The translations under genes were made by a program, and so were the position numbers. Under the pieces are notes generated by a model. It ran no database searches. It worked only from the letters and a program-made list of their open reading frames with translations, and was not told the origin of the DNA. A DNA stretch of 31,567 bases from Catajapyx aquilonaris (Eukaryota), in NCBI GenBank assembly GCA_000934665.2, contig KZ538242.1:62001-93567 (forward strand), written 5' to 3'. Below are positions 1,017 through 25,590 of this stretch, in pieces (positions within the stretch are counted from its first letter, which is position 1; each line of letters opens with the position of its first letter).

Positions 1017-3704
1017 ATGTCTCCAGTCACCCTGGAGTCTCTGATGGAAGTGTCTCTTGGCAACAGGAGGCTTCTGGAAGGGTTGATGTCACGAATGGAC
1101 TGGTGCCAGGAGGCCATCGGGAGGGTGGAGGGGTGGATGAAGAAGGAGAAGAAGCGTGGAAGGGAAGGTACGCATGAAGGAGGAACAAGGGTGCGCATCA
1201 GGAATTAATGCGTCTTGCATTCCAGAAGATGCTTCAGGCCAGCTGCTTCCCACCGAGTTTGTTTCCGTCAACATTGGACATGCAGGCAGCGAGTCATTGC
1301 CTGCGTCGTATAATGCTGAAAAAGAAATAAAAGTGGAGGAAGAGGATTGGGGAGTGGAGCAGGTGAGCGCATGAAGGATCACGCACTGATATACTAAAAA
1401 TTGAAAGCACCTGTAACTTAGTCAATTGAATAAAAAGCTTGTTCTTATATTTTTTAGGAGAGCTGTTATAGAGACTTGGAAGCAGAGACAGACAGAAACA
1501 GCTGTGAAATTACTGGAAATGTTAATTCAGAAGGTGGATATTCAGCAAGTATGACAAATTCTTTCCCACATGCATGTTAGAAGGTTTTCAGGACTATTCG
1601 ACATGAAGCCATGCTTTAATATGTGCCAATTGCGGTGTTGTTAATAATTCACCTAATAAGTTTCACATAAGCTGAGCATGAACCTTGACCTCAAAGTTGG
1701 GAAGTATCATTTGGACCAAGTAGGAATGCAGTAACCAAACACTCTTCAAGGGACTGCCCAAAAGTATGCGGGAAAATTGATCAAGGGACCGGAAAAAAGG
1801 GACGTTAAAAAAAGCACTAAATGCGGTAGCGTTATATCAAGGTTTTACTGTATATCGTCAGATGTGGTCAGCACACTTTCGAGTTAATCAGTGGATCTCC
1901 CCTCGGAGTCAAACTAGATGTACAGTCGCCGACATATTGATTGAATCACTTGCGAGCATCATTGCTCTGAATATCCAGGATAACGTTAGAAATCGGCTCG
2001 CAAGTGATTCAATCAATATGTCGGCGACTGTACAGTACTTACACACCTGACCCCCTTTGTGTGCCATCTGACTCAGCCATTTTCATTTGCAGGTGGAGCA
2101 GCTTCCTCACCTGATCTTCCAGTCAATGAAGAAGTCCATCCCCATGTGATTCAAGGATTGCACTTGCTTCACGAGGGAACAATGAAGCAAGAGATGCACA
2201 CTGAGAGTGAATTACGGAGCCAGGTATGGTCATTACTTCATTGCACAGTATTCGTATATTCTAAAAGTGATTTTTAAAAATGATAAGGGGCAAGCTGTTT
2301 CAATTAGGGGCAAGCCATATGTTAATGAAGGCATTAAATAATTTTTCATGTTTTATCAATGAATTTTTTTTTCAGTTTGTTACACTTTTGGAGATATGTT
2401 GTTGAAATTACCTAGAATGCGCCCAAAATTGTTCACATTATTATCCTATGATATATTAAATTCATTTATGACATGCTTGAGAGATAAATAAGTGCACATT
2501 GTTTCCATGAAAAACCGCAGTTGGAAAAAAATTATAATTGCGGAATTAGTACAGAATTGGTTATGAAAATGCGTCTATTGTGGTTACCTCCACACATTTA
2601 TTTGGAAGAAGTGCCTCCTTTTTTTTATGGGAAGAGTAATCTCCATTGATTTGTCATTATTCTTCAGGCCTCTACTTCTGCAAGCTGGAAGAACTCTCAG
2701 TCCATCAAAGTTGAGGCATTTCCATTAGAGGCGAGTGTTTCACATTAAAAAGATAAGGAAGCAGTTTCCTGGAAGTGGTCTGAATAGAACTGATGAGAAC
2801 AAAGAGAAGGAATTGATTGACTACAAGTCTTACTGAATGTTGCAGGTTGATGGAGCGGAAAATGAGGAAGTCAGTGATGTGAATGACTCCAGTGATGAAC
2901 ATGCCCCATCTGCTCAATCGGCTGATGATCCTGGTTGTGGCTCAAGTCGGATAACAAACCAAAAGCGGCAAAGGAAGGTACGCTTGTTTTAGTGTTAAGT
3001 TAATCAATGCCAAATCTAATTGCAGGAATTGCATTTTTTTTTTTGCACAACTTTAACACCTGCTTTACTTTTGAATTTTTTTGTAGCGCAAGAAACTACT
3101 GCAGCCAACTGAAACAGATGGTCCAAACAACACTGATCGGAACTGTGGGATTTCTTGTGCTTTGGAAATGGTTAAAGGAAAGAAATGGCATCAGTGTGAT
3201 CAATGCTCGTATAAGACTCAAGACACTGCAAACTTCAACAGGCATAAAGTTGTTCACGGAAGTGACCAAAAGCCTTTTGGTTGCGATGCATGTGAAAAGC
3301 GATTTAAGTCAAACCACGCCATGAAATTGCATTATAAGGCTGTCCATCTTGGTGTTACACCTTTTACTTGTGAAGTGTGCGATAAAAAGTTCCGTGGGAA
3401 GAGGAATTTGGAGGAGCACATGATGATCCACGCTGGCAAGAAGCAGCATTCATGTCAAGTGTGCAAAAAAACTTTTACGCTAGCCCGACATTTGAATTAT
3501 CACATGCAACTTCACACCGGAGAAAGAGAGTTACACTCTTGCTCCGTTTGTGGCAAAGGGTTCGGGTCCAAATCCGAAGTGGTCATACATATGAGGGTCC
3601 ACACTGGCGAGAAGCCCTATTGTTGCGACATTTGCCAGAAGAAGTATGCTAATCGCACTACCTTCCTTCGTCACAAGAAAATCCACACGGGACAAGGAAC
3701 CTGA
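1017..3704 (+). CDS. Gene 1: conserved N-terminal helical domain plus 6x C2H2 zinc-finger protein (about 440 aa, 7 exons)
   Basis: Exons 1017-1167, 1226-1362, 1458-1548, 2093-2223, 2668-2730 (GC donor), 2846-2977 and 3087-3704 join in frame (phases 1,0,1,0,0,0). The last exon has six C-x2-C-x12-H-x3/4-H fingers with TGEKP-like linkers. AATAAA at 3782. Confidence 0.88.
1729..1850. mobile_element. Degenerate pogo/Tigger-like MITE remnant
   Basis: Right end cgttatatcaaggttttactg-TA resembles a Tigger-type TIR; the left end (cagtaacc) is decayed. Confidence 0.4.
1923..2030. mobile_element. Tc1/mariner-type MITE (108 bp) in gene 1 intron 3
   Basis: Perfect 35-bp TIR cagtcgccgacatattgattgaatcacttgcgagc; TA on both flanks. 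Confidence 0.85.
3087..3704 (+). CDS. Gene 1 terminal exon, six C2H2 zinc fingers
   Basis: Acceptor ttttttgtag at 3086 is in frame with ORF 3162-3704 (HQCDQC...HKKIH). Confidence 0.92.
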   Translation, partial: RKKLLQPTETDGPNNTDRNCGISCALEMVKGKKWHQCDQCSYKTQDTANFNRHKVVHGSDQKPFGCDACEKRFKSNHAMKLHYKAVHLGVTPFTCEVCDKKFRGKRNLEEHMMIHAGKKQHSCQVCKKTFTLARHLNYHMQLHTGERELHSCSVCGKGFGSKSEVVIHMRVHTGEKPYCCDICQKKYANRTTFLRHKKIHTGQGT

Positions 3705-3707
3705 GGT

Positions 3708-4815
3708 ATCGTATGATTCAACTAAGATTCTCCTGAATTGCGCTGAACACGCTGTACAATATTTGGTAATAATTTTACAACAATAAATCAATAATTATGA
3801 CCCTGAAAAATGACACCAGTGGGAACGTACCCGACGTTTTGAATAGATTCTGAAGCGGCGACAGCAACACACCCTTAAGGAATTCCAAGATGGCGGCCGT
3901 GCAATGCATTTAGAAGCCTGCTGATTAACTTTCCATCGCATTTCCAGCTAGTTTGGTCCCCCTTCCTGCACTTTCCAACTCGCTTCTGGTTTAGCCTCAT
4001 CTGGTCTTCCCTTACCAACATCAGAATCAGGACTGAGGACTCTAGACTTGAAGCAATGGCTGCTCCAGTCACCCTGGAGTTTCTGATGGAAGTGTCTCTA
4101 GGCAACAGGAGGCTTCTGGAAGGGTTGATGTCACGGATGGACTGGTGCCAGGAGGCCATCGGGAGGGTGGAGGGGTGGATGAAGGAAAGTGGTAAGCAAG
4201 ATGAGGTTGGAAGGTTCCGCAAGATCTGCTATATAATAATCCAATTTTTCACGGCAACAGGAGCTAATTGACATACTTGTTTGCATGAGATTTAATTTCT
4301 TATTCAATTTCAGATGTCGCTTCAAGAAAGTTGCATCCCAGAGAGTTTGTAGCTGTCGACATTCAGGATAGAAGCGGTCGGATGTCGGACGGTAATATCA
4401 AAGTGGAACCGGAGGTTTGGGCACCAGAGCAGGTGATTAAAGCTGGAGTAATTGTGTACAATGGATGCTACACAGAAACTACTGCACTTGCATAATTTTA
4501 CTGTTCTGGAACGCAATGCATAAGTCAATTTTAAATAACTTGGAGCAATGTTTCGTTATGTGCCGTACCATCTAATGATTTCAATTGAAAATTGTAAGAT
4601 TGTGTCAGTTCAAAACTTTCACAAGTAGCTTAGTTGATCAATTTCTGGTTTTTCAATTTTTTGTCTCTTATTTTACAGGACACATTGAATGATGACCTGG
4701 AAGCGGAAACGGCTAAAAACATCAGTGAACTTTCAACCTTCATGAGTTGTGCATGTGCAGAAGTTGACAGTTTGGCTAGTGCAAGTAAGATTTAATGGAA
4801 AACGCAATGATTACA
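3708..4815 (+). repeat. Recent segmental duplication, matches about 6143-7230
   Basis: Promoter, exons 1-3 and introns are nearly identical by eye between genes 2 and 3. Confidence 0.9.
3821..3897 (+). promoter_or_regulatory. Gene 2 core promoter with YY1/Pho-type motif
   Basis: GGAACGTACCC, then CAAGATGGCGGC at 3886-3897. Confidence 0.6.
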
Positions 4816-6041
4816 GTTGAAAGGAGCTTGAGTAGTGCAGCCTTGCAATGAATATTTATGCATCCCATGTGATACTGGACATTGCAAATGCAGTAGAACC
4901 CCAATTATCCGACTCCTCGGTTTATCCGACCGTCCTGCTCCAGCAATAAATGTATGGTATCTCATCAAACACTAATGCAGGCCTACTGACAGTACTAAGC
5001 ATTTGTTTTGTACTGTATTGCCTTAACATTTTAAACAGTAGAGTGTGTATGTAAAAGATAAATGCTTCCCTAATTGTAAAAGATAAATACTTCGCTATTG
5101 TTTAGAAAACCGTATTATTGTACGAGTATAATGTCATTCTTTCAAATATTTTTTGTTGTTTCATAAAACTTTCCTTTGCTTCTCGGATTATCCGACCTTC
5201 TCGGTCATCCGACGATGCCCCAATCCCGTGGGTGACACATAATCGGGGTTCTACTCTACAGTACCATATTTGACGGCGTATAAGACACTTTTCCCCCCCA
5301 AAAAATGGTCCAAAAAAATCGTATTTCAGAAGTTGCTTCAGGCCAGTCCCTTCCCACCGAGATTGTTTTTGTCAACACTGGAGATGAACGCAACGAGTCA
5401 ATGCCTGCGTGTGACATTGAAACGGAAATAAAAGTGGAGGAAGAGGACTGGGGGGCAGACAAGGTGAGGACAAGGCACATAGGCTGATAGACTTTAAAAA
5501 TCAAAAGGTGCCAGTAACCTTGTTAGTCAATCGAATTAAATGTGTTGTTATTTTTTAGGTCAGATGTTATAGAGACTTGGAGGCAGAGACAGCCAAGAAC
5601 ATCAGTGAAATTGTTGAAATTGTCGGCAGTGTCGATTCAGCAGGTAGGGCACTTTCTTTATTGTGTCACTTGCATGTTAGAAGGTGTGCAGGCTAACTGG
5701 AAATGAAACCATGCTTTAATAAGTGCAACAAAAGTGTCATGAAGTACATGCAGTTTTGATTCCAAGTAGCTATGTACCAAATGAAGGGAGATGAAGAAAG
5801 AGAGCTGGAAGAAGCATGTGCATCAAGGAGGAAAGTCGTGCCCAGTCCCAGCCAACAGAAGAAGTGTATAAGAAGCCAAATGCACCTTCCCAAGATGATG
5901 AAAGACAAAAATGCCAGCCGCTGCCGAAAGAAAGGGTGCAAGGGGCGGTCTAGGGTGCAGTGTGATTGTTGCCACTTGTATTTTTGTGTTGTTTCGGAGC
6001 GCAACTGTTTTAAAGCATATCATTTATCCCTCTGTAAGTAA
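4056..6041 (+). CDS. Gene 2: chimeric family member ending in a piggyBac transposase C-terminal cysteine-rich domain (about 283 aa, 6 exons)
   Basis: Exons 4056-4191, 4314-4432, 4679-4784 (near-copies of gene 3 exons 1-3), 5330-5463, 5559-5643 (paralogs of gene 1 exons 2-3) and 5770(or 5767)-6041 all join in frame without stops. AATAAA at 6079. Confidence 0.65.
4891..5256. mobile_element. pogo/Tigger-like MITE in gene 2 intron 3
   Basis: TIRs cagtagaaccccaattat / ataatcggggttctactc; internal ttatccgac repeats at both ends; TA on the right flank. Confidence 0.75.
5770..6041 (+). CDS. piggyBac/PGBD-type transposase C-terminal Cys-rich (zinc-binding) domain exon
   Basis: HLP...RCRKKGCKGRSRVQCDCCHLYFCVVSERNCFKAYH gives C-x4-C-x7-C-x2-C-x4-C-x6-C-x4-H with the RNCF motif typical of PGBD C-termini. 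No DDD catalytic core is present. Tandem AAG/TAG acceptors both give phase 1. Confidence 0.75.
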
Positions 6042-6243
6042 TGTGTGTTTTTTTTGATATTATTTTGTTAGAGAGGTAAATAAATTTATTTTATTTTCTG
6101 CTTATGTTGTACTTTGCTGCTAGTATTGCAATCAGTATTGGCATCATATGATTCAACTAATATTAATTTCTGATTGCCCTGTGCAATTTGGTAATCATTT
6201 TATTATAATAATCAATAATATGACCCTGAAAAATGACACCAGT

Positions 6244-6320
6244 AGGAACGTACCCGACGTTTTGAATAGATTTTGAAGCGGCGACAGCAACACACCCTTA
6301 AGGAATTCCAAGATGGCGGC
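6244..6320 (+). promoter_or_regulatory. Gene 3 core promoter with YY1/Pho-type motif
   Basis: GGAACGTACCC, then CAAGATGGCGGC at 6309-6320. Confidence 0.6.
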
Positions 6321-6480
6321 CGTGCAATGCCTTTAGAAGCCTGTTGATCAACTTTCCCTCACATTTCAAGCTAGTTTGGTCCCCCTTCCTGCACTTTCCA
6401 ACTCGCTTCTGGTTTAGCCTCATCTGGTCTTCCCTTACCAACATCAGAATCCGGACTGAGGACTCCAGAGGCTTGAAGAA

Positions 6481-8297
6481 ATGGCTGCTCCAGTCACCCT
6501 GGAGTCTCTGATGGAAGTGTCTCTAGGCAACAGGAGGCTTCTGGAAGGATTGATGTCACGAATGGACTGGTGTCAGGAGGCCATCGGGAGGGTGGAGGGG
6601 TGGATGAAGAAAAGTGGTAAGCAAGATGAGGTTGGAAGGTTCCGCAAGATCTGCTATAATAATCCTATTTTTCACAGCAACAGGAGCTAATTGACATACT
6701 TGTTTGCATGAGATTTAATTTCTTATTCAATTTCAGATGTAGCTTCAAGCAAGTTGTATCCCAGAGAGTTTGTAGCTGTCGACATTCAGGATAGAAGCGG
6801 TCAGATGTCGGACGGTAATATCAAAGTGGAACCTGAGGATTGGGAGCCGGAGCAGGTGATTAAAGCTGGAGTAATTGTGTACAATGGATGCTACACAAAA
6901 ACTTGCGTAATTTTGCTGTTCTGCAACGCAATGCATAAGTCAATTTTTAAATAACTTGGAGCAATGTTTCGTTATGTGCCGTACCATCTAATGATTACAA
7001 TTGAAAATTGTAAGATTGTGACAGTTCATAACTTTCACAAGTGGCTAAGTTGATCAATTTCTGGTTTTTCAATTTTTTGGTCTCTTATTTTACAGGACAC
7101 ATTGAATGATGACATGGAAGCGGAAACGGCTAAAAACATCAGTGAAATTTCAACCTTCATGAGTTGTGCACGTGCAGAAGTTGACAGTTTGGCTAGTGCA
7201 AGTAAGATGATGGAAAATGCAATGATTACAGCAATGTGGTATTAAAGTATTGCATCCCTCTTCAGGTGAGGAATCTTCCACACACATCCATAGTGCAATC
7301 GAGTCTGAGCAAATGCCTCCGCACTCTTCACATATTCAGAAACCTGAACTCGGAGATGGTATAAAACCTGAGGTATAACGAAGACCTCCTATTATGATTG
7401 CAAACTGGAAAATATCCAACCAATTTTCAGAATAATGATGCCCAACCAAGCGCATTAGAGGACAAACGCATCCCATCGGATCACATGCAAGATGACTCTG
7501 ATGAAGTCACGAATGGGAGTGGAAAAAGACGCAGGAAAGAAAAGGTATGCTTGTTAATTTTACAGTCAGGTTTCACTACATCAGCTTTTCTATCTCCAAC
7601 TGGTGAAGAATTTTCTGTTCGATCAACCTGTGAGCATCTGGTTACGTTCTTGTTGCGTTAAAGTGGAATTATTTTCTAGGGAAGGCCCAAAGTGCAGGCA
7701 ACAGACCAACAGAATGATGACCAAGAGGCTTCTAGTAGCATGGACAAGGAGGAAACTGTACAGATGAAGAGGAATGAGAAAGGCATGTTCCAGTGCAGCA
7801 TATGTTCGTACCAGTCGTACCACATTTCGACAATCAAGAGGCATGAAACGACCCACAACAACGAGAAGCCCTACTGTTGCAGCATTTGTGAAAAAAAGTT
7901 TTCCTTGAAGAGTGCGTTCATGCGGCATTTCCGTACCGTCCATCTCGATAATAAGCCTTTCTCTTGCGACATATGCAACAAGAAATTTGCCAGGCGGGAC
8001 AGAATGGAGGAGCACAGGAGGATTCACACTGGCGAGAGGCCACATGCATGCAAAGTGTGCAACAAAACCTACGTTTCGCTAAATCACTTGAAGATTCACA
8101 TGATTACGCATAAGGATAAGACAGACGCACACACTTGCACCCATTGCGGCAGAGCATTTCAAGCCAAACGTGACATGGTTGTCCACATGAGGACGCACAC
8201 AGGTGAGAAGCCCTTCTGTTGTGACATATGCCAGAAAAGGTTCACTCGCCGTAATATAATGAATCATCACAGGAGACGCCAGCACGCAGGAGAATGA
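6481..8297 (+). CDS. Gene 3: N-terminal helical domain plus 6x C2H2 zinc-finger protein (about 399 aa, 6 exons)
   Basis: Exons 6481-6616, 6737-6855, 7096-7201, 7266-7372, 7431-7544 and 7680-8297 are in frame with canonical GT-AG introns; six fingers in the last exon. Confidence 0.9.
7680..8297 (+). CDS. Gene 3 terminal exon, six C2H2 zinc fingers
   Basis: Acceptor attttctag at 7679 is in frame with ORF 7692-8297. Confidence 0.92.
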   Translation, partial: GRPKVQATDQQNDDQEASSSMDKEETVQMKRNEKGMFQCSICSYQSYHISTIKRHETTHNNEKPYCCSICEKKFSLKSAFMRHFRTVHLDNKPFSCDICNKKFARRDRMEEHRRIHTGERPHACKVCNKTYVSLNHLKIHMITHKDKTDAHTCTHCGRAFQAKRDMVVHMRTHTGEKPFCCDICQKRFTRRNIMNHHRRRQHAGE

Positions 8298-8343
8298 CCG
8301 TAATGCAAAGCATGCAACAAAAATTAAATTCTCTCATATTGTA

Positions 8344-8431
8344 CTATGGGCGCCAAAAGAATTGACCGGAGTTGATGGGCATATAGCGCCATTTACCCAT
8401 CAACTCCGGTCAATTCTTTTGGCGCCCATAG
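8344..8431. mobile_element. Palindromic TA-flanked MITE (88 bp) just 3' of gene 3
   Basis: Perfect 36-bp inverted repeat ctatgggcgccaaaagaattgaccggagttgatggg; near-palindromic centre; TA on both flanks. Confidence 0.8.
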
Positions 8432-8653
8432 TACATAACATAATTGGAAGTTCAGAAGTCATGTTCCTTTCGCCATGTCCTTCGCCATCTGTTAACTTGT
8501 GTTTGCTTACTGGATTACTTCCAAGTAATTGACATTAACTTTGCGTAGCAATGTTCATGTCCTCTTGTACTGTATGTATACGTAGGTACAGCCCATCCTC
8601 CCGCACTTGCTTCCAGTGAGTGTATGCCTGAGGGTTACACACTTTAGTTAGTA

Positions 8654-8891
8654 TAATATAATAATATATAATAATAATTCGGGGTAGTGCTTGACCTCAT
8701 CTGAGGTATGCAGCACGGACCTTTATTTATTATGTCAAGTACATTTGGAGCCTTTATACGTAACGCCCGGGCCCACGGGCAGGATCACAGGAGGGGATGT
8801 GCAAGGTGCAGTGCAATGTCTTAAACGTGGCCATTTTTAGTGAACTCCCCTGGGTGGTTTAGTCTGTGGAAATACCACCCGAGACGAAGCC
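8654..8891 (-). mobile_element. 5'-truncated non-LTR retroposon (SINE or LINE 3' end)
   Basis: 14-bp direct repeat cactttagttagta at 8640-8653 and 8892-8905; (TTA)n-like tail on the minus strand; terminal stem-loop also found at about 190-250. Confidence 0.8.
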
Positions 8892-9370
8892 CACTTTAGT
8901 TAGTAATTAAGAATAATAAGGTGTAGCAATGGAAAAGTCGAATGATTTTTTATCTTCGTGCTATCTCGGTTAAGATGTGTTGTTGGATGATGTAAATGAT
9001 AATGAGCAAGCTCATTTAATTATTTTTTAATTAGGACATTTTCATATGTTTGCATTAATGAGAATTTGGGTTTTCATCAACTAAGCAAATCGTTTTGTTC
9101 CCACTTGAATAAAAGGAAGTGTTCTATAATAACTGTGGCAACGACCTTAATAATTAATATGTGCCCTAATTGCCCAATTATGATCAATTTTTTTATCAAT
9201 TCAATATCTTATCAACGTGCTCTGCGATACACCGCAATAAAATCAATGGATGTGATGATGAGAAAAACTGTTTAAAAAAATTAAGTTTATAATATATGCA
9301 TAAAATTAATATTTTAATAGTAACAGTGTATTTAAATTTATTAAAAATTGCGACCTTGAATACCATCAGT

Positions 9371-9440
9371 AGGAACGTACCCTTCGAACAGTTTCGTGAT
9401 GGCGGTGGGAACACACCCGCAGGAATTCCAAGATGGCGGC
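9371..9440 (+). promoter_or_regulatory. Gene 4 core promoter with YY1/Pho-type motif
   Basis: GGAACGTACCC..GAACAGTT, then CAAGATGGCGGC at 9429-9440. Confidence 0.6.
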
Positions 9441-9598
9441 TGTCCATTTCCTTCTGAAACTTTTCCTTTGAAGATTTCCTTCCATTTCCACAAATTTCCA
9501 CCTCCTTTGGACCCCCTTCCTTTCCATTTTTCCGTCTCGCTTCTGATCCAGCATCATCTGGACCATATCATTCGAACAGGTCTCTAGGTTCTGAAGCA

Positions 9599-11505
9599 AT
9601 GTCTCCGGTAACTCTGGAGTCTCTGATGGAAGTCTCTCTAGGCAACAGGAGGCTTCTGGAATTGTTGGTCTCCAGGATGGACTGGTGTCAGGAGGCCATC
9701 GGAAGGATGGAGGGGTGGATGAAGCAGCATGGATGGGAACAGCCAGAAGGTGAGGTTCCGCAAGACTAGCGGAAATGTAAAAAATGGACATGCTGCGGAA
9801 CGGTGTGTAAATCTTGTCAATTTCAGATGCTGCATCAAGCATGAGCCTTCCCGAAGAAGTAAACCCTACCTGCCTTGATGGTGAAAGTGGCAGTCCAATG
9901 CCTGCATGTTATATCAAAGTGGAAAAAGAGGAGATTGATTCAGAGCAGGTGAAAATAAAATCTTTAGCAATTACGTACATTCTGTCCAAAGCATGCAAAG
10001 GTCCAGGCTGAACGTGACTTTGACAACATTGCACAAGATGTGGAAACCTCGACTATGTTACGGAATTTCTTAACGTATCCAATTTTTTCCCCCCCAGGAG
10101 ACGTGGAATCCTGCCTTGGAAGCAGAAATGAGCGGAAACATCAGCCTTTTAAGCCATGCAGATGAGGCAGTTGGGAATTTAGCAAACGCAAGTAAGGTTA
10201 CATCACTTGCGCAATTCTACGAAAGTCATTTGAGTCCATGGAGACAGCTAATACGAATAGAACCATAATATTTAGATGGTAGCAATGTTTATGGCTTTCA
10301 ATTCAAGTTTTTCTTTTGTCGTGTCTCAATAGGCAAGGAAGAATCCTTTGTACCTTCGCATAGTGAAAGCCGGCATCAGGAGGTCTTTGCGCTCTCATCA
10401 CATCAAGAGGGAGCTTTCCTCCAGGAAGATGAACTCATGGACAGTACAAACTTCCAGGTACGAGAAAACTACACCTTTTATTTCCATTTCAATGTGACTG
10501 TTTGCCAATCTACTTTCAGCAGGGTGAGATTGACGTGTCCGAAACAGAAGACGCCCCAGCTGATCATACGCACACTGAATCTGGTGACGGCATGCTTGGG
10601 AGAGGAAATCAAAATAAACCAGGGAAGGTATACATGCCAATCTTTTGCATGAAATATGATTCATCAAAATAATGTCGTAAGTCTTGTCATAACCATAGTT
10701 ACTAATAATTAACTATGGTTATGACAAGACTTACGAGTTAATTATATTAGTAACTATGGTTACTACCAGTTACGGCAAAAATTTGACTGACGACATTTGA
10801 TGAATCCACCACCAGTATATTAAAAATAAAAATAATTATTGTTCAGGAATTTTGCAACTTTTGCTCTGGTGTTTTAGTAATTTTTTGCACAACATTTGGC
10901 AACAATGCCTGCACTTTGCAGTTCAACATTTTGCCCTTATTTTGCATTCATCAAGCCTGTACGGTGCTTTGTATTTTTTTTTTGTATCCCTTTTGAAGCA
11001 AATTCGGACTTTAGAAGAGCGTCTGCACCTCATACGAGAAGTGGAGACCAACCCGTGGGAGAAGCTGACTGACATATCCAAGCGACTAGGCCTTCCATCA
11101 TCAACGCTACGTTCAATCATGGCAAGGAAAAGGGAGACCAAGCAGCAGGCAGAAAAGTGCGGCTCATCCGCCACGAAAAGGAAGAACAGCAAGCAGTCGA
11201 CTTACGGCGCGTTGGAAAGGGTCCTCTTTCCCTGGTATCAGCAGGCCCTCGCATCAGGCATTCCCGTCAACGGCAACATGGTGCGGGAAAAAGCGCTGGA
11301 AATAGCCGCAACAATGGGGATACACAATTTTTCTGCATCAAACGGGTGGATCTGCCGGTTCAAGCATCGTCACGGACTCATGTCTTATAAGTCGGGCGCG
11401 GACAGTGCTGCGGTGGACGTTGAACCGCCGGACTGTTCAGACTCCCTTCAATTGCAAGGAGAAACTTATTCCAGATGGAAATGTACCGAGGAGGAACCTA
11501 ATTAA
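9599..11505 (+). CDS. Gene 4: N-terminal helical domain fused to a pogo/Tigger (CENP-B-type) transposase DNA-binding domain (about 368 aa, 6 exons)
   Basis: Exons 9599-9749, 9827-9948, 10098-10191, 10333-10457, 10520-10627 and 10999-11505 are in frame. The last exon encodes a psq-like HTH (TLEERLHLIREVE...ISKRLGLPSSTLRSI) plus a CENP-B HTH (LERVLFPWYQQ...IPVNGNMVREKALEIA...FSASNGWICRFKHRHGL). AATAAA near 11545. Confidence 0.85.
10658..10806. repeat. Nested inverted repeat or fold-back MITE in gene 4 last intron
   Basis: Perfect 27-bp arms at 10675-10701 and 10710-10736; inverted copy of the centre at 10737-10762; outer arms gattcatcaaa..atgtcgt / acgacatttgatgaatc. Confidence 0.75.
10999..11505 (+). 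CDS. Gene 4 terminal exon: CENP-B/Tigger-type double helix-turn-helix, no DDE domain
   Basis: Phase-0 acceptor cccttttgaag at 10998; motifs as above; the ORF stops before any catalytic domain. Confidence 0.88.
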   Translation, partial: QIRTLEERLHLIREVETNPWEKLTDISKRLGLPSSTLRSIMARKRETKQQAEKCGSSATKRKNSKQSTYGALERVLFPWYQQALASGIPVNGNMVREKALEIAATMGIHNFSASNGWICRFKHRHGLMSYKSGADSAAVDVEPPDCSDSLQLQGETYSRWKCTEEEPN

Positions 11506-11583
11506 TATTGTAAGTTTTGTACCTCTTTTTTTTTCTCTCTCTTCAATAAAATTTTAAACAGCCCGCCTTCTAATAACACCCGT

Positions 11584-11650
11584 AGGAACGTACCCTCTGA
11601 ACAGTTCCAGCCGCGGATAGCAACACGCCCTTTTGGACAAAATGGCGACT
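11584..11650 (+). promoter_or_regulatory. Gene 5 core promoter with YY1/Pho-type motif
   Basis: GGAACGTACCC..GAACAGTT, then CAAAATGGCG at 11638-11647. Confidence 0.6.
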
Positions 11651-11791
11651 GATCACTCACACGACAGTTGATCTGAAGATTTCCTTTTACATTTTCCATC
11701 CCCTTTTCCTGCAGTTCCAACTCCAAGCATTTGATCAGCATCATCTGGACCAGCATTTCAACATCCAACTGGACCCAAAGGTGCAAAAGCC

Positions 11792-13600
11792 ATGGTCACC
11801 CTGGAGTCTCTGATGGAAGTGTCTCTCGGCAACAGGAGGATTCTGGAATGTTTGATGTCCCGCATGGACTGGTGTCAGGAGGCCATAGGAAGGATGGAGG
11901 GGTGGATGAAGAGCAGGGAAGGTACGCAAGGTACGGAAGGTACGCAGGATGGAAGTGGCGAGCCGATGCCTGCAGATGATATCAAAGTGGAAACGGAGGA
12001 GTGGGAGTCGGAGCAGGTGAGAAAAGTACCATCACTCATAATGTATGTACTATTTCAAATGTGTCTTTTTCACGTATTGTTTGTCAGGTGACGTGGAATC
12101 CTGACTTGGAAGCAGAAACAGCGAAAAACATCAGGGAAATTTCCACTCTCTTAAATTGCGCAGACGCAGCAGATTGCAGTTCGGCGAACACAAGTATGGA
12201 ACTTCAATTATTATAATTGCATTTAGAGCGTACCACCACATGAATAAGAAAGCTTTTGAGACGACAGCTAGACGTTCAATTGCGATATTTTTGTGGAAGG
12301 AAATAAAACATTTGATGTTGTTACAGGTAAGCAAGAGCCGTCCACATCGTTGCAGAGTGAAAACCATTCGGAAGAAATTCTTGGACTTTCCGTGCACCAT
12401 GAAGCAGCCTTTCTTCAGGAATCTGAACTCGGTGGCAATGTGAAGTTGGAGGTAGGGAACAAAATGCGTATGTCATGTTCATCGATCGCAATTTGAGATC
12501 TTTCCCGATTAACTTTCAGAAGGATGATACCCAGCCTTGTAGCTCCTACGAAGAATATGTCCCAGCTGATCAAATGCAAGAAGGCTCGAATGATGGCACA
12601 CACACGAGAAGGAAGAGAAACAGGCCGGGAAAGGTATGTTTGTCGTGCACATTGAATGAGAGGTTCGTAATCATGTAATCATTGTAACGAGAATAATCCA
12701 AGAAAGAAGTCACGGTTGCATAATTAATTTTTGGTCATTATGAGATATTTTAAGCGGGTATTTCAGTTCTCAGGCGTAAATATTTCCCCCTGTTTAGTAC
12801 CATTTAGTTCCGCTTTCAAGAAGTTGTTGCTGCTCCGAGCAATGCGTCTAGTTTGATAAAAAATTATTAGATCAGGTAATTGAAACAAAGCAGTAAAAGC
12901 AGCATTGCTTACTTCCCTGATAGATGATAGATCTAGTCGAAATTGGCCGTGGAGTATTCATACATTTTTTTTTTTTCAGGACAAGATCAGTGTGCAAGCA
13001 ACTGGAAGCGATCAACAGTATGACGACCATGGAGCCTCGGCTGACATGGATATGGGAAACAGTCAAGAGCCGCAGAAAAATAAGAAAGGCATGTACCAGT
13101 GCAGCATTTGTTCATATCAGACTTACCACATTTCGACGTTAGCCAAGCATAAAACTTCTCACAGCAAGGAAAAGCCGTACCGATGCAGTGTTTGCGAAAA
13201 GCGATTTACCATAAAGCATGCGTTCATACGGCACTTTCAGGCTGTGCATCTCGAGGATAAGCCTTATTCTTGCGACATATGTCAAAAGGGATTTATTAGG
13301 AGGGACAGACTGGAGCAGCACAGAGGAATTCACACAGGCGAAAGGCCGCATTCATGTCAAGTGTGCAACAAATCCTTCACTTCACATACCTATTTGAAGA
13401 CTCACATGGTTACTCACAGCAACGAGAGAAAGTTGTTTACCTGCTCAAGTTGTGACAAATTCTTCCAGTCGAAACATGCCTTGGTTTTACATATGAGGAG
13501 TCACACAGGGGAAAAGCCGTATGGCTGTGACATATGCCAGAAAACGTTTGCTCGACGCGGTGTAATGATTCGCCACAGGAAAAGCCACACTGGAGAATAA
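11792..13600 (+). CDS. Gene 5: N-terminal helical domain plus 6x C2H2 zinc-finger protein (about 396 aa, 5 exons), close paralog of gene 3
   Basis: Exons 11792-12016 (fused exons 1+2), 12088-12193, 12327-12451, 12520-12633 and 12980-13600 are in frame; fingers are collinear with gene 3 ([16 protein letters not shown]). Confidence 0.9.
12980..13600 (+). CDS. Gene 5 terminal exon, six C2H2 zinc fingers
   Basis: Acceptor poly-T cag at 12979 is in frame with ORF 12905-13600. Confidence 0.92.
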
Positions 13601-13886
13601 CCATAAACCATGATGTATGCCACACAGGGGATTAAAACGTAATGAGAAAAATTATGTCATGTAATATGAAGCAGAGTCAAGTCATTTTTATGGGTATTTT
13701 CTACTCTCATGTGGGTTTTCTTTAGGTTCTGCCATTTCTTTCCACTCGCACTCTGTTAAACCCGGCGGGATTATGTTCATTTCCTCTCGTATATTTCTCC
13801 TCCTCTGTACCTCATGGCTTCCCACGTTGCCAAAACGTTGTGACAAGTTGGTTGCAGAGAGAAGTGTATTACTGTGTCAGTTTTGT

Positions 13887-13999
13887 CAGACATTGGCAGC
13901 CGCGGCCCTGGCCAACTTCCATGAAGTTGGCCCGTGGCCTGGCCGTGGCGTTGCTAGGGGGCCCGTAGGTGTGAACCGTCGCGGCCGCGGCCAAGCCTG
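13887..13999. mobile_element. GC-rich degenerate MITE-like element (hAT-like CAG...CTG ends)
   Basis: cagacattggcagccgcggc versus gcggccgcggccaagcctg; sharp GC rise; no target-site duplication seen. Confidence 0.35.
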
Positions 14000-14709
14000 T
14001 CCCGTCTGCACGGCCCCATTAATTACTTGAGAGACCATGCCCATTTCATGTCACGGCAAGCTCTTAACAATAAGAAAATCAGTTGGCCTTGCGTGGCTGT
14101 CATGTGGGAGCCCAAGTCAATTGCTTCTTTTTTGACAATGACTTTGGGGATTCGCGATTGTCTGCTCTCTTCACCACAGGTTTCGACAAAACCATAGCAG
14201 AGCATGTAAATAGGTGTGAATTGTCAATTTACAGTGTGTGTTTGAATGTCATGCTTCGGCATAGGCCAAATTTTATTATTGCGGTGGGTTGTGTGTCACT
14301 GGAAAAAGGTGTGGGTTTTTTTTTTGTGTGTATATTATGATCGCAACTTGTGGCACAGGCCTTCCACGGCTGTTTTTTTGATAATTTAAAACAGTCATGA
14401 GCATGTATTGCCGACTTAATAAAAGGAGAGATAAATCCATGTATTGGCACAGATTATTACATAATTTACATGGCATTGCCAAATCCTAAACCACATCCTA
14501 TTTATTCCAATGCAAAATAATGATTATATAGTTGCATTGTCACATACGTGAAGCTATCAAAATTTAAGAAAGCAGACATCATACGCCTTTGTATTGTTGA
14601 AAGTAGGAGGCGATGGTCCAGCTACTATAGACAGTGTACATATTTCTCGGGGAAATACTTTTAAGGGATATGAAGTGATTGTGAATTGACATTCCGTTCA
14701 TCACGCCAG

Positions 14710-15167
14710 AGAGGAAGAGGAATGACTTGACCTTGGCCGACAAAGTAAAGGTCATCCAGATGCTCGACTTTCGTCCGAAGATGTCCCAGGCTGAAATCGC
14801 AAAGAAGTTCGGCTGCTCCCAGTCGCAAGTGTGCAGAGCCCACAAGAACAGGGAGGCCATCATGCAGCAGTGGGGCACAAATGGGAATCCAAACCGCAAG
14901 AGGAAGCGAGAGGGCAAGGATGGAGAAGTTGGAGACGCTCTTCTTCAGTGGTTTATGGAAACTGGAGGAAAGTCTGTACATTTGACTGGTCCCGTATTGA
15001 TGGAAAAGGCCAGATCCTTAGCAGTCAGCCTAGGCGATCCGGATTTCAAACCAAGCGAAGGCTGGCTGAGCAGGTGGAAGGAGCGGAACAATCTTGTGTT
15101 CAGAAGAGTACATGGTGCCAGAAAAGACTGTGGGACCTTCTCATCTGGGATTGACTCTGCCAGATAA
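14710..15167 (+). CDS. Orphan CENP-B/Tigger-type double-HTH exon, probably an alternative terminal exon
   Basis: Encodes xRKRNDLTLADKVKVI...SQAEIAKKFGCSQSQVCR...LLQWF...LTGPVLMEKARSLA...FKPSEGWLSRWKERNNL. There is an in-frame TGA at about 14682 with no ATG before the domain. Acceptor ttccgttcatcacgccag at 14709 (phase 1). AATAAA at about 15363. No DDE domain. Confidence 0.78.
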
Positions 15168-15727
15168 AGCCGCAGGTACCTGTTGGACATTTTTCACATT
15201 TAATATACGGAAAATATTTGAGGTGGTGTCCAGATTTTTCTAGTCAGCCGAAGCTGCATCGTCCAGCATCAGCTCATAAATCCTATGTACCTGTTTATGT
15301 TGTGAAAGTGAAAATCTCATTTAAAAATGTTCCAGTATTAATAATGTAAACATTTATTAGTGAATAAATAATAAATCTTTCCAGTTGACATTTTCTTTTG
15401 AGCTCTAATAAATGGTTCAACAGGACATGGGCAGGACGCGGAAAATAATCTGACGTGTCACTGAAGCTCAAAAATAATCGTTACATTCATATTAATTTTT
15501 AATAACCAAAGGTGATTCCCACGTTTAAGAAAAATCAATACTTTCCAGTGCTACCAACAGAAGCGAGTGCGCCATTACAGTTTATGAACCGCAAAAAGAG
15601 TTAAACGACTAGTTAAATATAATAGTCCGCATCATGCTGAAGCCGCATATGTTTTAAATGAGCATATAATTAATTAATATCAATATTTGAACCCGTAAAT
15701 GTCACAACCGAATTATATGGCAGCGAT

Positions 15728-15790
15728 GGGAACGCACCATCAGAACAGTTCGTGTGGCAGCCGCACGAATGCGATTCAAAGATGGCGTCC
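15728..15790 (+). promoter_or_regulatory. Gene 6 core promoter with YY1/Pho-type motif
   Basis: GGAACGCACC..GAACAGTT, then AAGATGGCG ending at 15787. Confidence 0.6.
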
Positions 15791-15902
15791 CTTTGAGCGT
15801 CGGTCGCGTCTGTTTTGACCTAGTTTTCCATCCCGACGCCCGCCGACGCTTGTTTGGGGCACCTTTTTTGGTTTCAAACGACGCTCCAGGTACATCAGAA
15901 CC

Positions 15903-18900
15903 ATGCTGAACATTCGAACCATGAAGTCCGTGAGTAGCGTAGGAGTTCAGGCCACATCTCCAGTGGATTTGGAGATGCTGATGGACACATGCTTGTCCAA
16001 CAAGTGTCTTCTGGAAGGGGTGGTGTCACAGCTGGGAGAGTGGAAGGAGGTCATGCGGGTTCTGGGCGAATGGGTACGGCAAGCACAGGGTGAGTCACAT
16101 TGCGAGGGGTCATCATTGCGACTTGATTGGGGTTGCTTTTCTTTATTAGCTGCTGAAGATGGTCCTGGAAGACACTCTGATGTTGGCGGGCCAGAGTGCA
16201 CAACCAACACCGAAGTGCACGTGAAGGTGGAACAGACGGATGAGTTGGAAGCGGGGCTGGACGCAGGAAGTTCGGTAAGGTTGCCTACTAGAGAGCCACG
16301 CGCTCATGGCTGGACACGCCAACTGGAAATGCTCCACATATGTTATTGATACTGTCGTAAGTTCATTCGATGGCAAATTAGATTAATGACCATAAAGGCG
16401 CATACGCACAGGCCGTCGACGAGAACTGAAACCAAAACCGTCGACGGCTTGTGTGAATGGGCCTTAAGGGAAGAAGTAAAATCACTATCAGCAGCGCTTA
16501 TGTTGTCAAAAAAATTATACCATCAGAAAAAATTATGATATGAACACACATAATTAGTAGATATTAGGACTTTCCTTTATATTTTTACAGGTAACAGAGT
16601 TTCAGTCCATCGGAGCTCAGACTGACATGAGAGAAACTGCATCTCTCGCAAGCCATGAAGAAGAATATGCAGTAGCTGGCACTATGTCAAACGCAGGTAT
16701 GTTATTTACGTGTTTATAGGTGGAGATCGTGATTGTTGATGATAATCGAGTGCTCAAAGCTGGAAGTTGCAGTGTCACGATTGGTGGCAGGCTATTGTTT
16801 CAGCGAAACATTGACCCCAATGTGAAGGTGTCGATTGGTATACAGCCGCACTTACATGTGAGCGATTAGATTGGCGACGTTGCAGCGATGTCACCAATTG
16901 TTTGGGGCGAAAATTCTCGGTGATGGCATCGCCAGTCAAATTGCTCACATTTAAACGCGGATTAAGGTGTCATTGTATTGGGTTCAATTGATTTTCACAG
17001 AGAGATAAATACATTTTGATAAAGCAGCACCTTTTATTTCCTAGTCGATTACACATTATTTGTGCATATTTATGTGTAAAGGTAAATATATAGCAATTTT
17101 CTCTCTACAGGTGGAGGCGAAGCCCTTAATTTGTCCTGTGAGAGAGTTGCCCATGGGGATGAGCCTGATGAACTTGCCGCATTACCTGAGCGAACAATTC
17201 AGCCAGAACTTGGAAGACGATTAAACATCAGGGTGAATGTAATATTCTATTTTTTTATATGGTTGGCAGCTGATGTAACATTGGATTTAATCTTTAGTAG
17301 TACACTTACTGCATTACTCTGCAAATAGTGGCATGAATATATGAAACATGGTTGAGCAGGAGAGTGGTAATTATTTTAATAAGAAGTTAGTGTCAATTGT
17401 AATATGGAAAACCAAGTGAACATGGAGTACTGCAATCACTGCGTAATGCATGGTGCACCAAAATTACATGTTCAGCAGCTTACAAATTATGCAAAATTTT
17501 GATACGTATGTATAAAACTATGTGCATGTTTCCAACAGGCAACTAGCCCCTTCCATGGCCTAGCCAGCTGCTCAAACGTAATAGTGAAGCAGAGGAAGAA
17601 AAGTACTGTGAGTATTCATACGGGGGACATACAGACCATCGTTCTGAATTGATGGAATAATTTTTATTCAGTGGCTCCTTTTCTCATGCTGGATATTACA
17701 GGTCTCTGCTGCTGGAACCTCAAACGACTGTGGACCAGCTGAAGCGAATGGAGCATCTGCCGAAACGGGCAGCCCAGCAGGCATACCAAAGAGACGTTTC
17801 TCTATGAGACAAAGAGTTGTGGTGAGTGATGGGTGGCCACAAAAGTGATCCGTTCCTTATTCTATGCAAAGCAGCACATTTTGTGGTAATTTTGAAATTC
17901 GCACATCTTTTTTTTTCGGTAAATCTATCATTACTGGAGTTGGATTCAGATGAACTTTCACCTGTCTTCTGTTACCCCCCAGATGACCGCTTCTGCAATC
18001 TCGGTTCAAAGCGAACCAGCAAATGGTGAAAGAGGCGTCGCTGCAGCATCGACTGCTTCATGTGACATTCCCAGTTCGTCATCGAGAAGGGTCGTGAGAA
18101 GGCACACACTGCCTGTAAGTAAATTGATGAATCTCGCTAACTGGAAGTGCCAGCAATGAAACATATAGACGGAGGATTTGCGCCCACATTTGGCCCCTTG
18201 TGAATGGGGGGGAAAAAATGCATTCCTAGTAATTATATGGAAAGTTAGGCCAATCTTGGCATTTAATTAATAAATACACCTACAATAAAGAGGAATTCAA
18301 GATAATATGGATTTATACCAAACACATAAGCAATAATTTTCTTCCCACCTTTTTCCAGGGCAGCAACAAGCCAGAAGCAACTGAAGGCAACACTCGGACC
18401 ACCTATTTCTTTCGCAACAAGGAGAGTGTTACGCCATCTGGATCGGGCACTGGAGAAAGCAAGAAGCTGGAAGAACCCAACAAGATGCACCAGGGAAAGC
18501 TTAACCATACTGAAAATAAGTCGCACCATGCAAGTCATCAACTGAAACGCGGGGGCTATTCTTGCAATTCTTGCAAAATTAAGTTTACAAGGAAGGATAA
18601 CTTATACAGACACTACGACTCCATCCATAAGGGTCTGAAGCCTCTCTCCTGTGACACGTGCGGTAAGAAATTTTTGGAAAAAAGCGGATTGGAGGATCAT
18701 AGGAGGACTCACACTGGCGAGAGGCCTCATACATGCAAGGTGTGCGAAAAGACCTTCACTACCAGAAGTAACTGGAGGGAACACATGCGCATTCATGCAG
18801 CTAAAAGAAAATTATACACATGCTCGATTTGCAAGAAAGTTTACACACACAAAGCCAGCTTCATTGCACATGGGAGGAAACATACTGGCGAGAAGCCATT

Positions 18901-19063
18901 CTGTTGCGAAGTATGTCAGAAGAAGTTTAGGGATGCCAGGTTCTTGCATAAGCACAGGAGAATCCACACGGGGCAGAAACCATATGCTTGCACCATATGC
19001 AACCAAAAATTTGCTCAGTCGCACAGTAGGAAGCGCCACATGAGAGTTCACGAAGGCACGTAA
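15903..19063 (+). CDS. Gene 6: divergent family member, N-terminal helical domain plus 6x C2H2 zinc fingers (about 521 aa, 8 exons)
   Basis: Exons 15903-16089, 16150-16274, 16591-16696, 17111-17232, 17539-17607, 17702-17821, 17983-18114 and 18359-19063 are in frame. The N-terminus SPVDLEMLMDTCLSNKCLLEGVVSQLGEWKEVMRVLGEW aligns with the family motif. Exon 3 is again 106 nt. Confidence 0.88.
16396..16464. mobile_element. PIF/Harbinger-type MITE (69 bp) in gene 6 intron 2
   Basis: TAA on both flanks; imperfect TIRs aggcgcatacgcacaggccgtcgacg / cgtcgacggcttgtgtgaatgggcct. Confidence 0.7.
16844..16962. mobile_element. Degenerate Harbinger-like MITE in gene 6 intron 3
   Basis: Imperfect inverted arms of about 33 bp: ccgcacttacatgtgagcgattagattggcga / tcgccagtcaaattgctcacatttaaacgcgg. 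Confidence 0.55.
18359..19063 (+). CDS. Gene 6 terminal exon, six C2H2 zinc fingers
   Basis: Acceptor ctttttccag at 18358 is in frame with ORF 18485-19063. Confidence 0.92.
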   Translation, partial: GSNKPEATEGNTRTTYFFRNKESVTPSGSGTGESKKLEEPNKMHQGKLNHTENKSHHASHQLKRGGYSCNSCKIKFTRKDNLYRHYDSIHKGLKPLSCDTCGKKFLEKSGLEDHRRTHTGERPHTCKVCEKTFTTRSNWREHMRIHAAKRKLYTCSICKKVYTHKASFIAHGRKHTGEKPFCCEVCQKKFRDARFLHKHRRIHTGQKPYACTICNQKFAQSHSRKRHMRVHEGT

Positions 19064-20319
19064 AAAGCATGACGACAGTTTCTGTACCGGAAGCTCATTT
19101 AAAGGAGCAGATGATCGACCTTCGACTTACAGTCCCATATTTATTGAGAGTAACTTGGACTACTATTATTTGCACCAAGTACAACATAAAATTAAAATGT
19201 GTAATGACATCTCAAAAGGAAGAACTGTTTGGTCAGTACGATTTTTATGTACGAAAAATCAACATTGCTCTATAACTGTGATGTTTAGCCACCGTGTGAT
19301 ACACTGTCAATTTTAAAGATTTTTGAGACATGCATTTTGCAGATATTATGTCACACACTCTCACCAGCAACTATTCCGTCCGTTCTAAGTCCCCATATCG
19401 CCTTTCATGCCAAAATTTATTGGCAAAATGTTGTGACTGTACTGTATGTGTATACTGCATTAATTAGATTTTCTTACTATGTATTGTGATTTCCAATTGT
19501 ATTTTTTAAGAGTCAGCTAGTCATATGATATCAAAAAATTTCGCAAAGGTTGTTAAATGCATTTAATTCGATTTTCTTGCAATGTACTGTGTGGTTTCTG
19601 ATATTGTATTTTTAAGTAAGCTAGTCATGTGATCAAAAAAATTGCACCGATTTTTCCACAGTTTTGTTAAATGTGTGAAGTCACAACCCACCGAAGACAG
19701 TCGAGTGTGAAGTCACTGTGTTATTAGCTTAGTTTGAGTAAAATTTATGCTAATTACAACTCACCCCTGTAATGGTGCCTTAAAAATGTTTTAGTGCCAT
19801 ACATGACAACGTGGGTTTTCTAATGTTAAGTCACAGCCAATGCTTCAGGTTAATTGCAGGAGTGAGTGGTATTTAGGATTCGTCTTTATTGATAAAGATG
19901 TGAGCTCATTTATGAGACATACGGCGTATTCATGAGTTTTTTTGGGGGGTGCTCTTTGATGTAGCTACCTGGATTCGAGTTACTTAATTATGGAAAAAAA
20001 AAATTGCAGTGAAAATAAATCGCGAGGTTAGGTGTCGAAATTGTGCATTCTTCCATTCCATCTCGATAATGACATGTGAAGTATGTCCTTCAAAATTGTG
20101 AATCCATGTAGTTGTGATGGTGTGCAGGGCACTTCTTTTCTCCAACTCCAAAATTTCCCAAATTACTGGTTTTCGAAGTGGGCGGGGATCAGCAGCGGGA
20201 GGGGGAGAAGGGATGAGGGAGACTCCACTGCTAAACTGCTTTCAGAGGCCAGACATGTAGCAGAAGGAGCAGTCGTATTGAAATAGAAGAGACGGCTACT
20301 GCCCATGTAACGCAGCTCT

Positions 20320-25577: not shown

Positions 25578-25590
25578 CCAAGATGGCGCC
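25578..25590 (+). promoter_or_regulatory. YY1/Pho-type motif upstream of gene 8
   Basis: CCAAGATGGCGCC about 190 nt upstream of ATG 25770, a spacing similar to the paralogs. Confidence 0.55.

Follow-up and report, generated by a model that had tools for sequence, protein, structure and literature searches.

A candidate host-transposase fusion gene within a tandem zinc-finger gene array of Catajapyx aquilonaris

The DNA analyzed here, a 31.6-kb window (contig KZ538242.1) from the eukaryote Catajapyx aquilonaris, carries a head-to-tail gene array, in which one member, gene 4 (9599-11505), ends in an exon that resembles a transposase. The units of the array have in common a promoter block, a first exon and short acidic middle exons. 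The promoter block (GTAGGAACGTACCC..GAACAGTT..CCAAGATGGCGGC) was found at 3822/3888, 6242/6311, 9369/9431, 11582/11640 and 15729/15780, which is upstream of genes 2, 3, 4, 5 and 6, respectively. The first exon with its conserved N-terminal segment occurs in six copies across the array. Genes 1, 3, 5 and 6 each possess a single terminal C2H2 zinc-finger exon (3087-3704, 7680-8297, 12884-13600 and 18233-19063). Comparison of the whole window with Rfam returned no family, and a scan for bacterial promoters and terminators, which is not applicable to a eukaryote, returned nothing.

Gene 4 consists of six exons on the plus strand. All donors are GT and all acceptors are AG, and the joined reading frame is open over 368 codons until a TAA at 11503-11505. 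Its promoter block (9369-9441) contains the motif set common to genes 2-6, and in blastn the region 9340-9727 showed 72-78% identity to other array units. Exon 1 (9599-9749) provides the ATG and encodes the N-terminal domain of the family, predicted as one long helix, with 82-89% amino-acid identity to genes 1, 2, 3 and 5. It is followed by exon 2 (9827-9948), encoding an acidic linker, exon 3 (10098-10191; collinear with 12085-12134 of gene 5 and 7093-7206 of gene 3), exon 4 (10333-10457) and exon 5 (10520-10627), all placed by collinearity with the paralogues. Taken together, gene 5 (11795-12633) and gene 3 (6487-7544) match exons 1-5 in collinear order. The donor of exon 5 is intact (GGGAAG/gtatac) and in phase 0, and the encoded end reads ..NKPGK in gene 4, ..NRPGK in gene 5 and ..RRKEK in gene 3. 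Intron 5 (10628-10998) contains a palindromic miniature inverted-repeat transposable element (MITE; around 10656-10810), recognized by its inverted repeats and by read depth, and a T-rich tract ahead of the acceptor. Exon 6 (10999-11505) is the terminal coding exon, with 168 codons plus the TAA. A polyadenylation motif, AATAAA, lies at 11545-11550, and the next promoter block (11582) begins 77 nt past the stop codon. In all these respects the gene agrees with the original prediction, which had given the same exon coordinates with an intact frame, collinearity with gene 5 in phase 0, and an AATAAA followed by the next promoter about 80 nt past the stop.

The prediction had further held that the zinc-finger exon has been lost, not skipped, and this proved correct. 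The six frames of 9300-11700 contain no C2H2 motif, compared with six in the gene 5 unit, and tblastn with three finger exons produced only a chance-level match in the gene 4 unit (E 4.1). Gene 4 is therefore ruled out as a C2H2 zinc-finger gene. Alignments of intron 5 and of the 3' flank of gene 4 with the paralogues scored within the shuffled range and do not map the breakpoints.

What stands in place of the zinc fingers is the DNA-binding half of a CENP-B-like transposase of the pogo superfamily. Pfam recognized two domains in exon 6, both above their gathering scores, CENP-B_N (E 2.4e-6, 27.5 bits, cut-off 21.2) and HTH_Tnp_Tc5 (E 1.5e-18, 66.9 bits, cut-off 22.2). Hence, the acceptor at 10998 indeed opens into a psq plus CENP-B helix-turn-helix pair, as had been claimed, and the exon starts at 10999. 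The first helix-turn-helix (CENP-B_N or psq type; exon residues 4-47, 11008-11139) aligns with CENP-B residues 9-51, and the second (HTH_Tnp_Tc5; exon residues 71-129, 11209-11385) belongs to the fold match described below. Residues 4-125 of the exon align to residues 9-130 of human CENP-B (PDB 1HLV) with an E-value of 2.5e-27. An AlphaFold model built from a 38-sequence alignment reached a predicted local distance difference test score (pLDDT) above 90 over residues 1-130, including the first helix-turn-helix, while the tail was disordered. The sole significant fold match of this model was DNA-bound CENP-B(1-129) in 1HLV, with a template modeling (TM) score of 0.82, a root-mean-square deviation of 2.3 over 124 columns and 42% identity.

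Sequence relatives of exon 6 are of the same kind. In a search of 5.8 billion proteins, the nearest entries were pogo transposases with a DDE_1 domain (P0003, 65% identity; P0004, 58%), and four transposon fragments were 56-65% identical; no exact or near-exact entry was found in the protein searches. An exhaustive search of 1.84 billion representatives returned 4634 matches at E of 0.001 or lower, all of pogo type and 14 of them at 1e-30 or lower; the best single-stretch matches had about 50-55% identity. Homology begins at transposase residue 1-4 and reaches approximately residue 143. Within the DNA-binding part, exon 6 has a mean identity of 0.59 to eight transposase relatives, against 0.63 among the relatives themselves, and it retains each of the 12 columns that are invariant or nearly so in the 38-sequence alignment. 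The disordered tail (exon residues 144-168, 11428-11502; pLDDT 42-56) lies where transposase homology ends, immediately before the first catalytic Asp, and its identity to the eight relatives drops to 0.17, against 0.57 among them. Either a breakpoint at this place or decay of a useless remnant may explain the drop. Since 0.17 fits both a decayed transposase and unrelated sequence past a breakpoint, we did not use the tail as evidence of differential selection. Using six transposases as tblastn queries, we found matches in the window only at 10990-11439 and 14718-15164 (query residues 1-154) and no DDE segment; a scan for inverted repeats revealed no pair flanking exon 6. Consequently, the earlier observation that a DDE domain and terminal inverted repeats are missing was borne out.

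The position of the acceptor deserves attention. Related transposases begin with MAKQIRTLEERL.. (MAKQIRT), and exon 6 begins with QIRTLEERL.., their residue 4; the acceptor AG thus corresponds to the last two letters of the third transposase codon, which encodes Lys. With a narrower alignment as query, 58 metagenome loci encoding relatives were retrieved, and exon 6 as a single-protein query found nothing. In 22 of the 23 loci that matched from query residue 1 and were inspected for the acceptor, an AG stands directly ahead of the homologous codon (..aagaag/CAAGTG..), the one exception having an indel. Most of these 23 loci have a start codon 18 nt upstream of the homologous codon and a long T-rich tract ahead of the start codon. 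We conclude from the AG at the homologous spot that the acceptor was supplied by the transposon lineage. A splice acceptor at the transposase start was the rule in eight of nine fusions examined, and specifically in KRABINER, according to the available text of Cosby et al. (bioRxiv 10.1101/2020.05.07.082677). No in-frame ATG is present upstream of exon 6 in the open frame from 10804, or within the exon ahead of residue 41, and a complete binding domain is therefore translatable only via splicing to upstream exons. The transposase-derived domain sits on an exon separate from the host exons, and exons 1-5 are collinear with paralogues that are not transposons. Overall, gene 4 displays three of the five features listed for a host-transposase fusion.

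Sequencing data comprised four DNA runs of one sample, among them X1, and a run of unrecorded kind from another study, X5. Contigs of X5 and X1 were placed on 3700-16000; what we report on joints covers 15 of 16, and what we report on contigs covers the pieces listed, with 894 more beyond these. Five intron-sized skips with GT..AG borders were seen in X5 and none in X1, so that X5 behaves as complementary DNA. These joints belong to gene 3 (7544/7680), gene 4 (9749/9827 and 10457/10520) and gene 5 (12451/12520 and 12633/12980). Transcription of gene 4 is thereby shown, as is its splicing at introns 1 and 4, the latter joint confirming the end of exon 4. In X5, the donors of genes 3 and 5 that are homologous to 10627 are spliced to the zinc-finger exons (7544/7680 and 12633/12980). 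Over exon 6, the depth of X5 was 5.9 in the bin 11098-11508.

In X1, exon 6 was recovered on one contig of 1129 nt (10696-11824) at a depth of 33 and without differences to the window, the unique neighbours having depths of 29-37. Because this depth equals the baseline, exon 6 is single copy at a likeness of at least 95% and does not belong to a young element present in many copies. One half of the outcome that the original prediction had named as speaking against itself, an exon within a multicopy intact transposon, was accordingly not what we found. Exon 6 as an intact or autonomous pogo/Tigger transposon is ruled out by the missing DDE segment, the missing terminal repeats and the single-copy depth. 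The MITE in intron 5 (10656-10810) has arms of 34 nt that are 91% complementary. In the intron 5 bin the X1 depth rose to 476, and six X1 contigs diverge behind 10810. Many X1 contigs have the ends of this MITE in common and vary inside it.

The N-terminal exons of gene 4 resemble no described domain in the searches made. Pfam gave no family at E-values up to 10 and no KRAB domain, the N-terminal exon had no relative among 5.8 billion proteins at the length setting 'longer', and the Atlas offered no informative cluster. AlphaFold predicted the N-terminal segment as one long helix (residues 6-43, pLDDT 92.5). A homodimer prediction for the N-terminal 50 residues scored 0.07, which gives no verdict and speaks neither for nor against dimerization. 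Judging from its position and from a gene architecture like that of KRAB and FiNZ genes, the helix may be an effector or partner-binding module. A KRAB-transposase fusion of the POGK or KRABINER kind is ruled out for gene 4 by the lack of a Pfam match of the N-terminal exons and by the single-helix model.

The same N-terminal core bears signs of constraint. Over its 39 codons, the ratio of non-synonymous to synonymous substitution rates (dN/dS) was 0.10-0.19 when gene 4 was compared with genes 1, 2, 3 and 5, at a dS of 0.33-0.51. Changes seen only in gene 4 comprised five synonymous and two non-synonymous ones, where neutrality predicts 78% to be non-synonymous (binomial p 0.007); the sample is small, and counting followed simple parsimony. 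Since introns and 3' flanks can no longer be aligned between the paralogues, with scores within the shuffled range, the conservation of promoter and first exon points to constraint or to local gene conversion.

These data make it somewhat more probable than the opposite that gene 4 arose as a host-transposase fusion gene within a lineage-specific family of zinc-finger genes arranged in tandem. A pogo-superfamily transposon would have inserted downstream of exon 5 in gene orientation. The AG at transposase codon 3, behind the T-rich tract, would then have been taken as acceptor for the phase-0 donor of exon 5. Later deletions would have removed the start codon, the ends and the catalytic DDE half of the transposon as well as the zinc-finger exon of the gene itself. 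The putative product of 368 residues would combine the N-terminal helix, presumably effector or partner-binding, with the acidic linker and a double helix-turn-helix of CENP-B type. Most likely such a protein would be a sequence-specific DNA-binding regulator and would recognize terminal repeats of cognate pogo-type elements and MITEs in place of zinc-finger targets. The structural side of the original prediction, an in-frame pogo/CENP-B exon with the zinc-finger exon gone, thus stands, while we infer the spliced messenger with its exon 5-exon 6 junction, its translation, the DNA target and the regulatory effect. That gene 4 is a genuine spliced fusion gene appears probable, at odds slightly better than even; that the fusion is also functional appears less probable than this.

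Several observations weigh against such a gene. The joint 10627/10999, which the original prediction had proposed as a check, is not among the joints listed for X5 (15 of 16), so that this check yielded introns 1 and 4 and cover of exon 6 and not the junction itself. By arithmetic on bin depths, X5 cover of 10999-11097 is indistinguishable from MITE-derived contigs. Among the X5 contigs listed, a single one covers exon 2, and it lacks two bases at 9883 (depth 2.9/2.9; X1 0/33.9), a gap that, if real, leads to a stop at codon 87 and leaves 86 residues; a difference in one contig at a depth below 5 may be an error, and the gap may also stem from a close paralogue or from a null allele carried by another individual. 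Of the 24 consensus residues at columns conserved in at least 80% of the sequences, exon 6 has 21, which places it 26th among 38. Protein searches found no orthologue or paralogue of the fusion and hence no comparator for exon 6, the best matches being transposon fragments or transposases at 62-65% identity. The basic stretch at the end of exon 5 of the paralogues is weakened to GNQNKPGK in gene 4, and the gene 4 unit is the shortest of the array, a compactness that also fits a member crippled by deletion.

Some of these points lead to a different account, which we regard as possible but clearly less probable than a fusion gene. Gene 4 might be a crippled array member in which insertion of a transposon and a deletion left a chimeric frame that is perhaps spliced, is not under selection and is becoming a pseudogene. 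Truncation at codon 87 by the two-base gap fits such a fate, as do a short unit abutting the next promoter, an exon 6 for which no orthologue or second copy reveals constraint, and the low tail identity past residue 143. Array members also vary otherwise, since gene 2 likewise lacks a zinc-finger exon and has duplicated exons and a MITE. However, the five upstream exons retain their frame and canonical splice sites, the changes private to gene 4 in the N-terminal core lean to the synonymous side (5:2), and the promoter block is conserved while introns are randomized. Furthermore, the captured piece is exactly the DNA-binding module, with 168 open codons and the invariant columns kept, and with start codon, ends and DDE part gone. 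Retention of exactly this module after loss of the remainder also argues against a very recent event that has not yet decayed. A more distant alternative, which we consider improbable, places exon 6 outside the gene 4 messenger altogether, as a dead intergenic transposon fragment that is covered by read-through or by transcription of its own and has an in-frame acceptor by coincidence. In line with this are the joint missing from those listed and a second pogo binding-domain ORF (open reading frame; 14685-15167), which lies intergenic past the zinc-finger exon of gene 5, with splicing not demonstrated; such fragments therefore do occur in the array. Against it stand the phase-0 fit, the strong T-rich tract and an AG exactly where homology starts. 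Moreover, between 10628 and the next promoter there is no other gene 4 exon and no polyadenylation signal except the AATAAA at 11545. Upstream parts of gene 4 are transcribed and spliced, X5 contigs cover the exon 6 region, and the fragment itself offers no start codon.

If gene 4 does encode a fusion protein, this would be aimed at the ends of its transposase clade. Three full-length relatives, the ones examined among the 58 loci, have ends of 25-26 nt reading TA followed by CAGTGGAACCTCGATCTATCGTT (compare TA followed by CAGTGGAACCTCGAT), which lie 2.07-2.14 kb apart. A candidate of this target type is located in gene 2, where a MITE of 366 bp (4891-5256, no strand assigned) has pogo-type ends (CAGTAGAACCCC..) that resemble the TA-CAGTGGAACCTCGAT ends of the relatives. 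Its two ends are CAGTAGAACCCCAATTAT and GAGTAGAACCCCGATTAT, and the X1 depth of the region is about 326, roughly ten times the baseline of about 33. A solo end of the same type lies at 1816-1852 on the minus strand. The 12-letter end pattern has three matches in the window versus 0.87 expected, and three or more occurred in 6 of 100 shuffles. Such MITE ends had been proposed as binding targets, and their resemblance to the ends of relatives from other organisms is consistent with this proposal.

Known systems offer several points of comparison. The closest is KRABINER, a ZNF112-mariner fusion of vespertilionid bats, as portrayed in the available text of Cosby et al. (bioRxiv 10.1101/2020.05.07.082677). 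In both, a transposon resides in or after the last intron of a gene from a tandem zinc-finger family. Effector exons are spliced to the transposase via a pre-existing acceptor at the start of the transposase frame, a joint that for gene 4 we propose from its structure. In KRABINER, an effector joined to the transposase DNA-binding domain binds the terminal repeats of the family that are dispersed as MITEs, and similar behavior is predicted for gene 4. As far as that text goes, the two differ in the transposon, which is mariner in KRABINER and pogo in gene 4, in the host N-terminal domain, where gene 4 has, instead of KRAB, a domain with neither a Pfam family nor a homologue in the databases, and in the catalytic half, which gene 4 also lacks. 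Unlike KRABINER, as described there, the gene 4 fusion cannot be an alternative isoform, because the parental zinc-finger exon is deleted. Another difference is that for gene 4 junction and function are predicted from the sequence structure.

Pogo-superfamily transposases have been recruited into host genes before. The available part of Gao et al. (2020; PMC7386202) describes 12 vertebrate pogo-derived genes, POGK and POGZ included, which all retain the DDE domain and have support from Ka/Ks (non-synonymous to synonymous substitution rates). Recruitment of a transposase of this superfamily into a host gene is what gene 4 would have in common with POGK and POGZ. POGK in particular, going by the same text, joins KRAB, an effector of a zinc-finger family, to a pogo DNA-binding domain with HTH_Tnp_Tc5. 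In contrast to the genes described there, gene 4 retains only the first approximately 143 transposase residues with their two helix-turn-helix motifs. CENP-B has the same fold of two helix-turn-helix motifs (1HLV), but it possesses a degenerate transposase core and a C-terminal dimerization domain and no N-terminal host exons. The parental family of gene 4 is comparable to the KRAB-ZNF and FiNZ-ZNF genes, which, in the accessible portion of Wells et al. (2023; PMC10547256), likewise have a short lineage-restricted exon for the N-terminal domain, linkers and a terminal C2H2 exon and are arranged in tandem arrays. The N-terminal helix of the array matches neither of the two domains, going by Pfam and by the search of 5.8 billion proteins, and gene 4 has no fingers. 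Literature searches on host-transposase fusions and pogo elements yielded no fusion like gene 4.

In tetrapods, new transcription factors are known to arise when a host effector is joined to a captured transposase DNA-binding domain, an established route with KRABINER as the best worked example. If our reading of gene 4 as a fusion gene is true, it would extend this route to an N-terminal domain without known homologues and to a pogo fragment that is restricted to DNA binding. The parental zinc-finger exon would already be lost, and neighbouring paralogues would possibly represent earlier or parallel stages. Should both the junction and the binding prove true, the locus would be a compact natural system for the swapping of DNA-recognition modules in a tandem zinc-finger family, and it could show whether the product polices MITEs with cognate ends. 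Otherwise, gene 4 would be an ordinary decaying member of its array.

Two neighbours of gene 4 also carry transposase-like reading frames. The gene 2 unit (3822-6241) has no C2H2 motif in six frames and ends in a Cys-rich ORF (5760-6041) with the pattern C..C...C..C....CF..YH, and a polyadenylation-like AAATAAA is located near 6079. The nearest Atlas clusters of this ORF are 'PiggyBac transposable element-derived protein 4' and zf-Tnp_2 with scores of 0.94-0.96; Pfam gave a sub-threshold match to Transp_Tc5_C only (E 0.016), and a comparison with PDB sequences gave no match. With regard to the reading frame, the exon 5559-5643 ends in phase 1 and the acceptors at 5766/5769 are in phase 0. The ORF may be a second capture of a transposase module. 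Past the MITE at 4891-5256, gene 2 contains a second set of exons resembling exons 2 and 3 (4314-4784 and 5330-5643; tblastn 4676-4789 and 5329-5451), which from the sequence is an internal duplication of the unit. The second pogo ORF on the plus strand (14685-15167; CENP-B_N E 5.8e-11, HTH_Tnp_Tc5 E 4.7e-12) sits between the zinc-finger exon of gene 5 and the promoter of gene 6. It is 25% identical to exon 6, has no ATG, is cut off just past the binding domain and shows the lowest consensus retention of the 38 sequences. In X5 its depth was 0.7-0.9, with no joint among the 15 of 16 listed. It could serve gene 5 as an alternative last exon or be a dead fragment.

It is conceivable, though we think it unlikely, that the array is a hot spot of DNA-binding-domain swapping, in which genes 2, 4 and 5 independently gained transposase-derived modules in gene orientation within about 12 kb. 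Gene 2, its zinc-finger exon lost as well, would have gained the Cys-rich C-terminal module of piggyBac/Tc5 type, gene 4 the pogo double helix-turn-helix of exon 6, and gene 5 the second pogo double helix-turn-helix, downstream of zinc fingers that it has kept. One MITE with ends of the matching type lies inside gene 2. If there were such a hot spot, the capture process would be caught at successive stages side by side, and the N-terminal helix would be a portable effector that the genome repeatedly re-aimed at transposon ends.

Beyond the genes discussed so far, remoter members of the array were noticed at 20163-20500 and 25770-25886, in which the N-terminal helix has diverged (..EEDMAALKEWARG..). 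The promoter motif AAGATGGCG recurs at 25581, at one of these remoter members. Between genes 3 and 4, the segment 8632-9042 is a very high-copy repeat, with a summed depth of about 80,500 in X1 versus a baseline of about 33 and of about 1,200 in X5. It had no family match in Rfam and is probably a SINE-like (short interspersed nuclear element) or satellite element. Just upstream of this repeat, the segment 8344-8434 is by sequence a perfect-looking palindrome.

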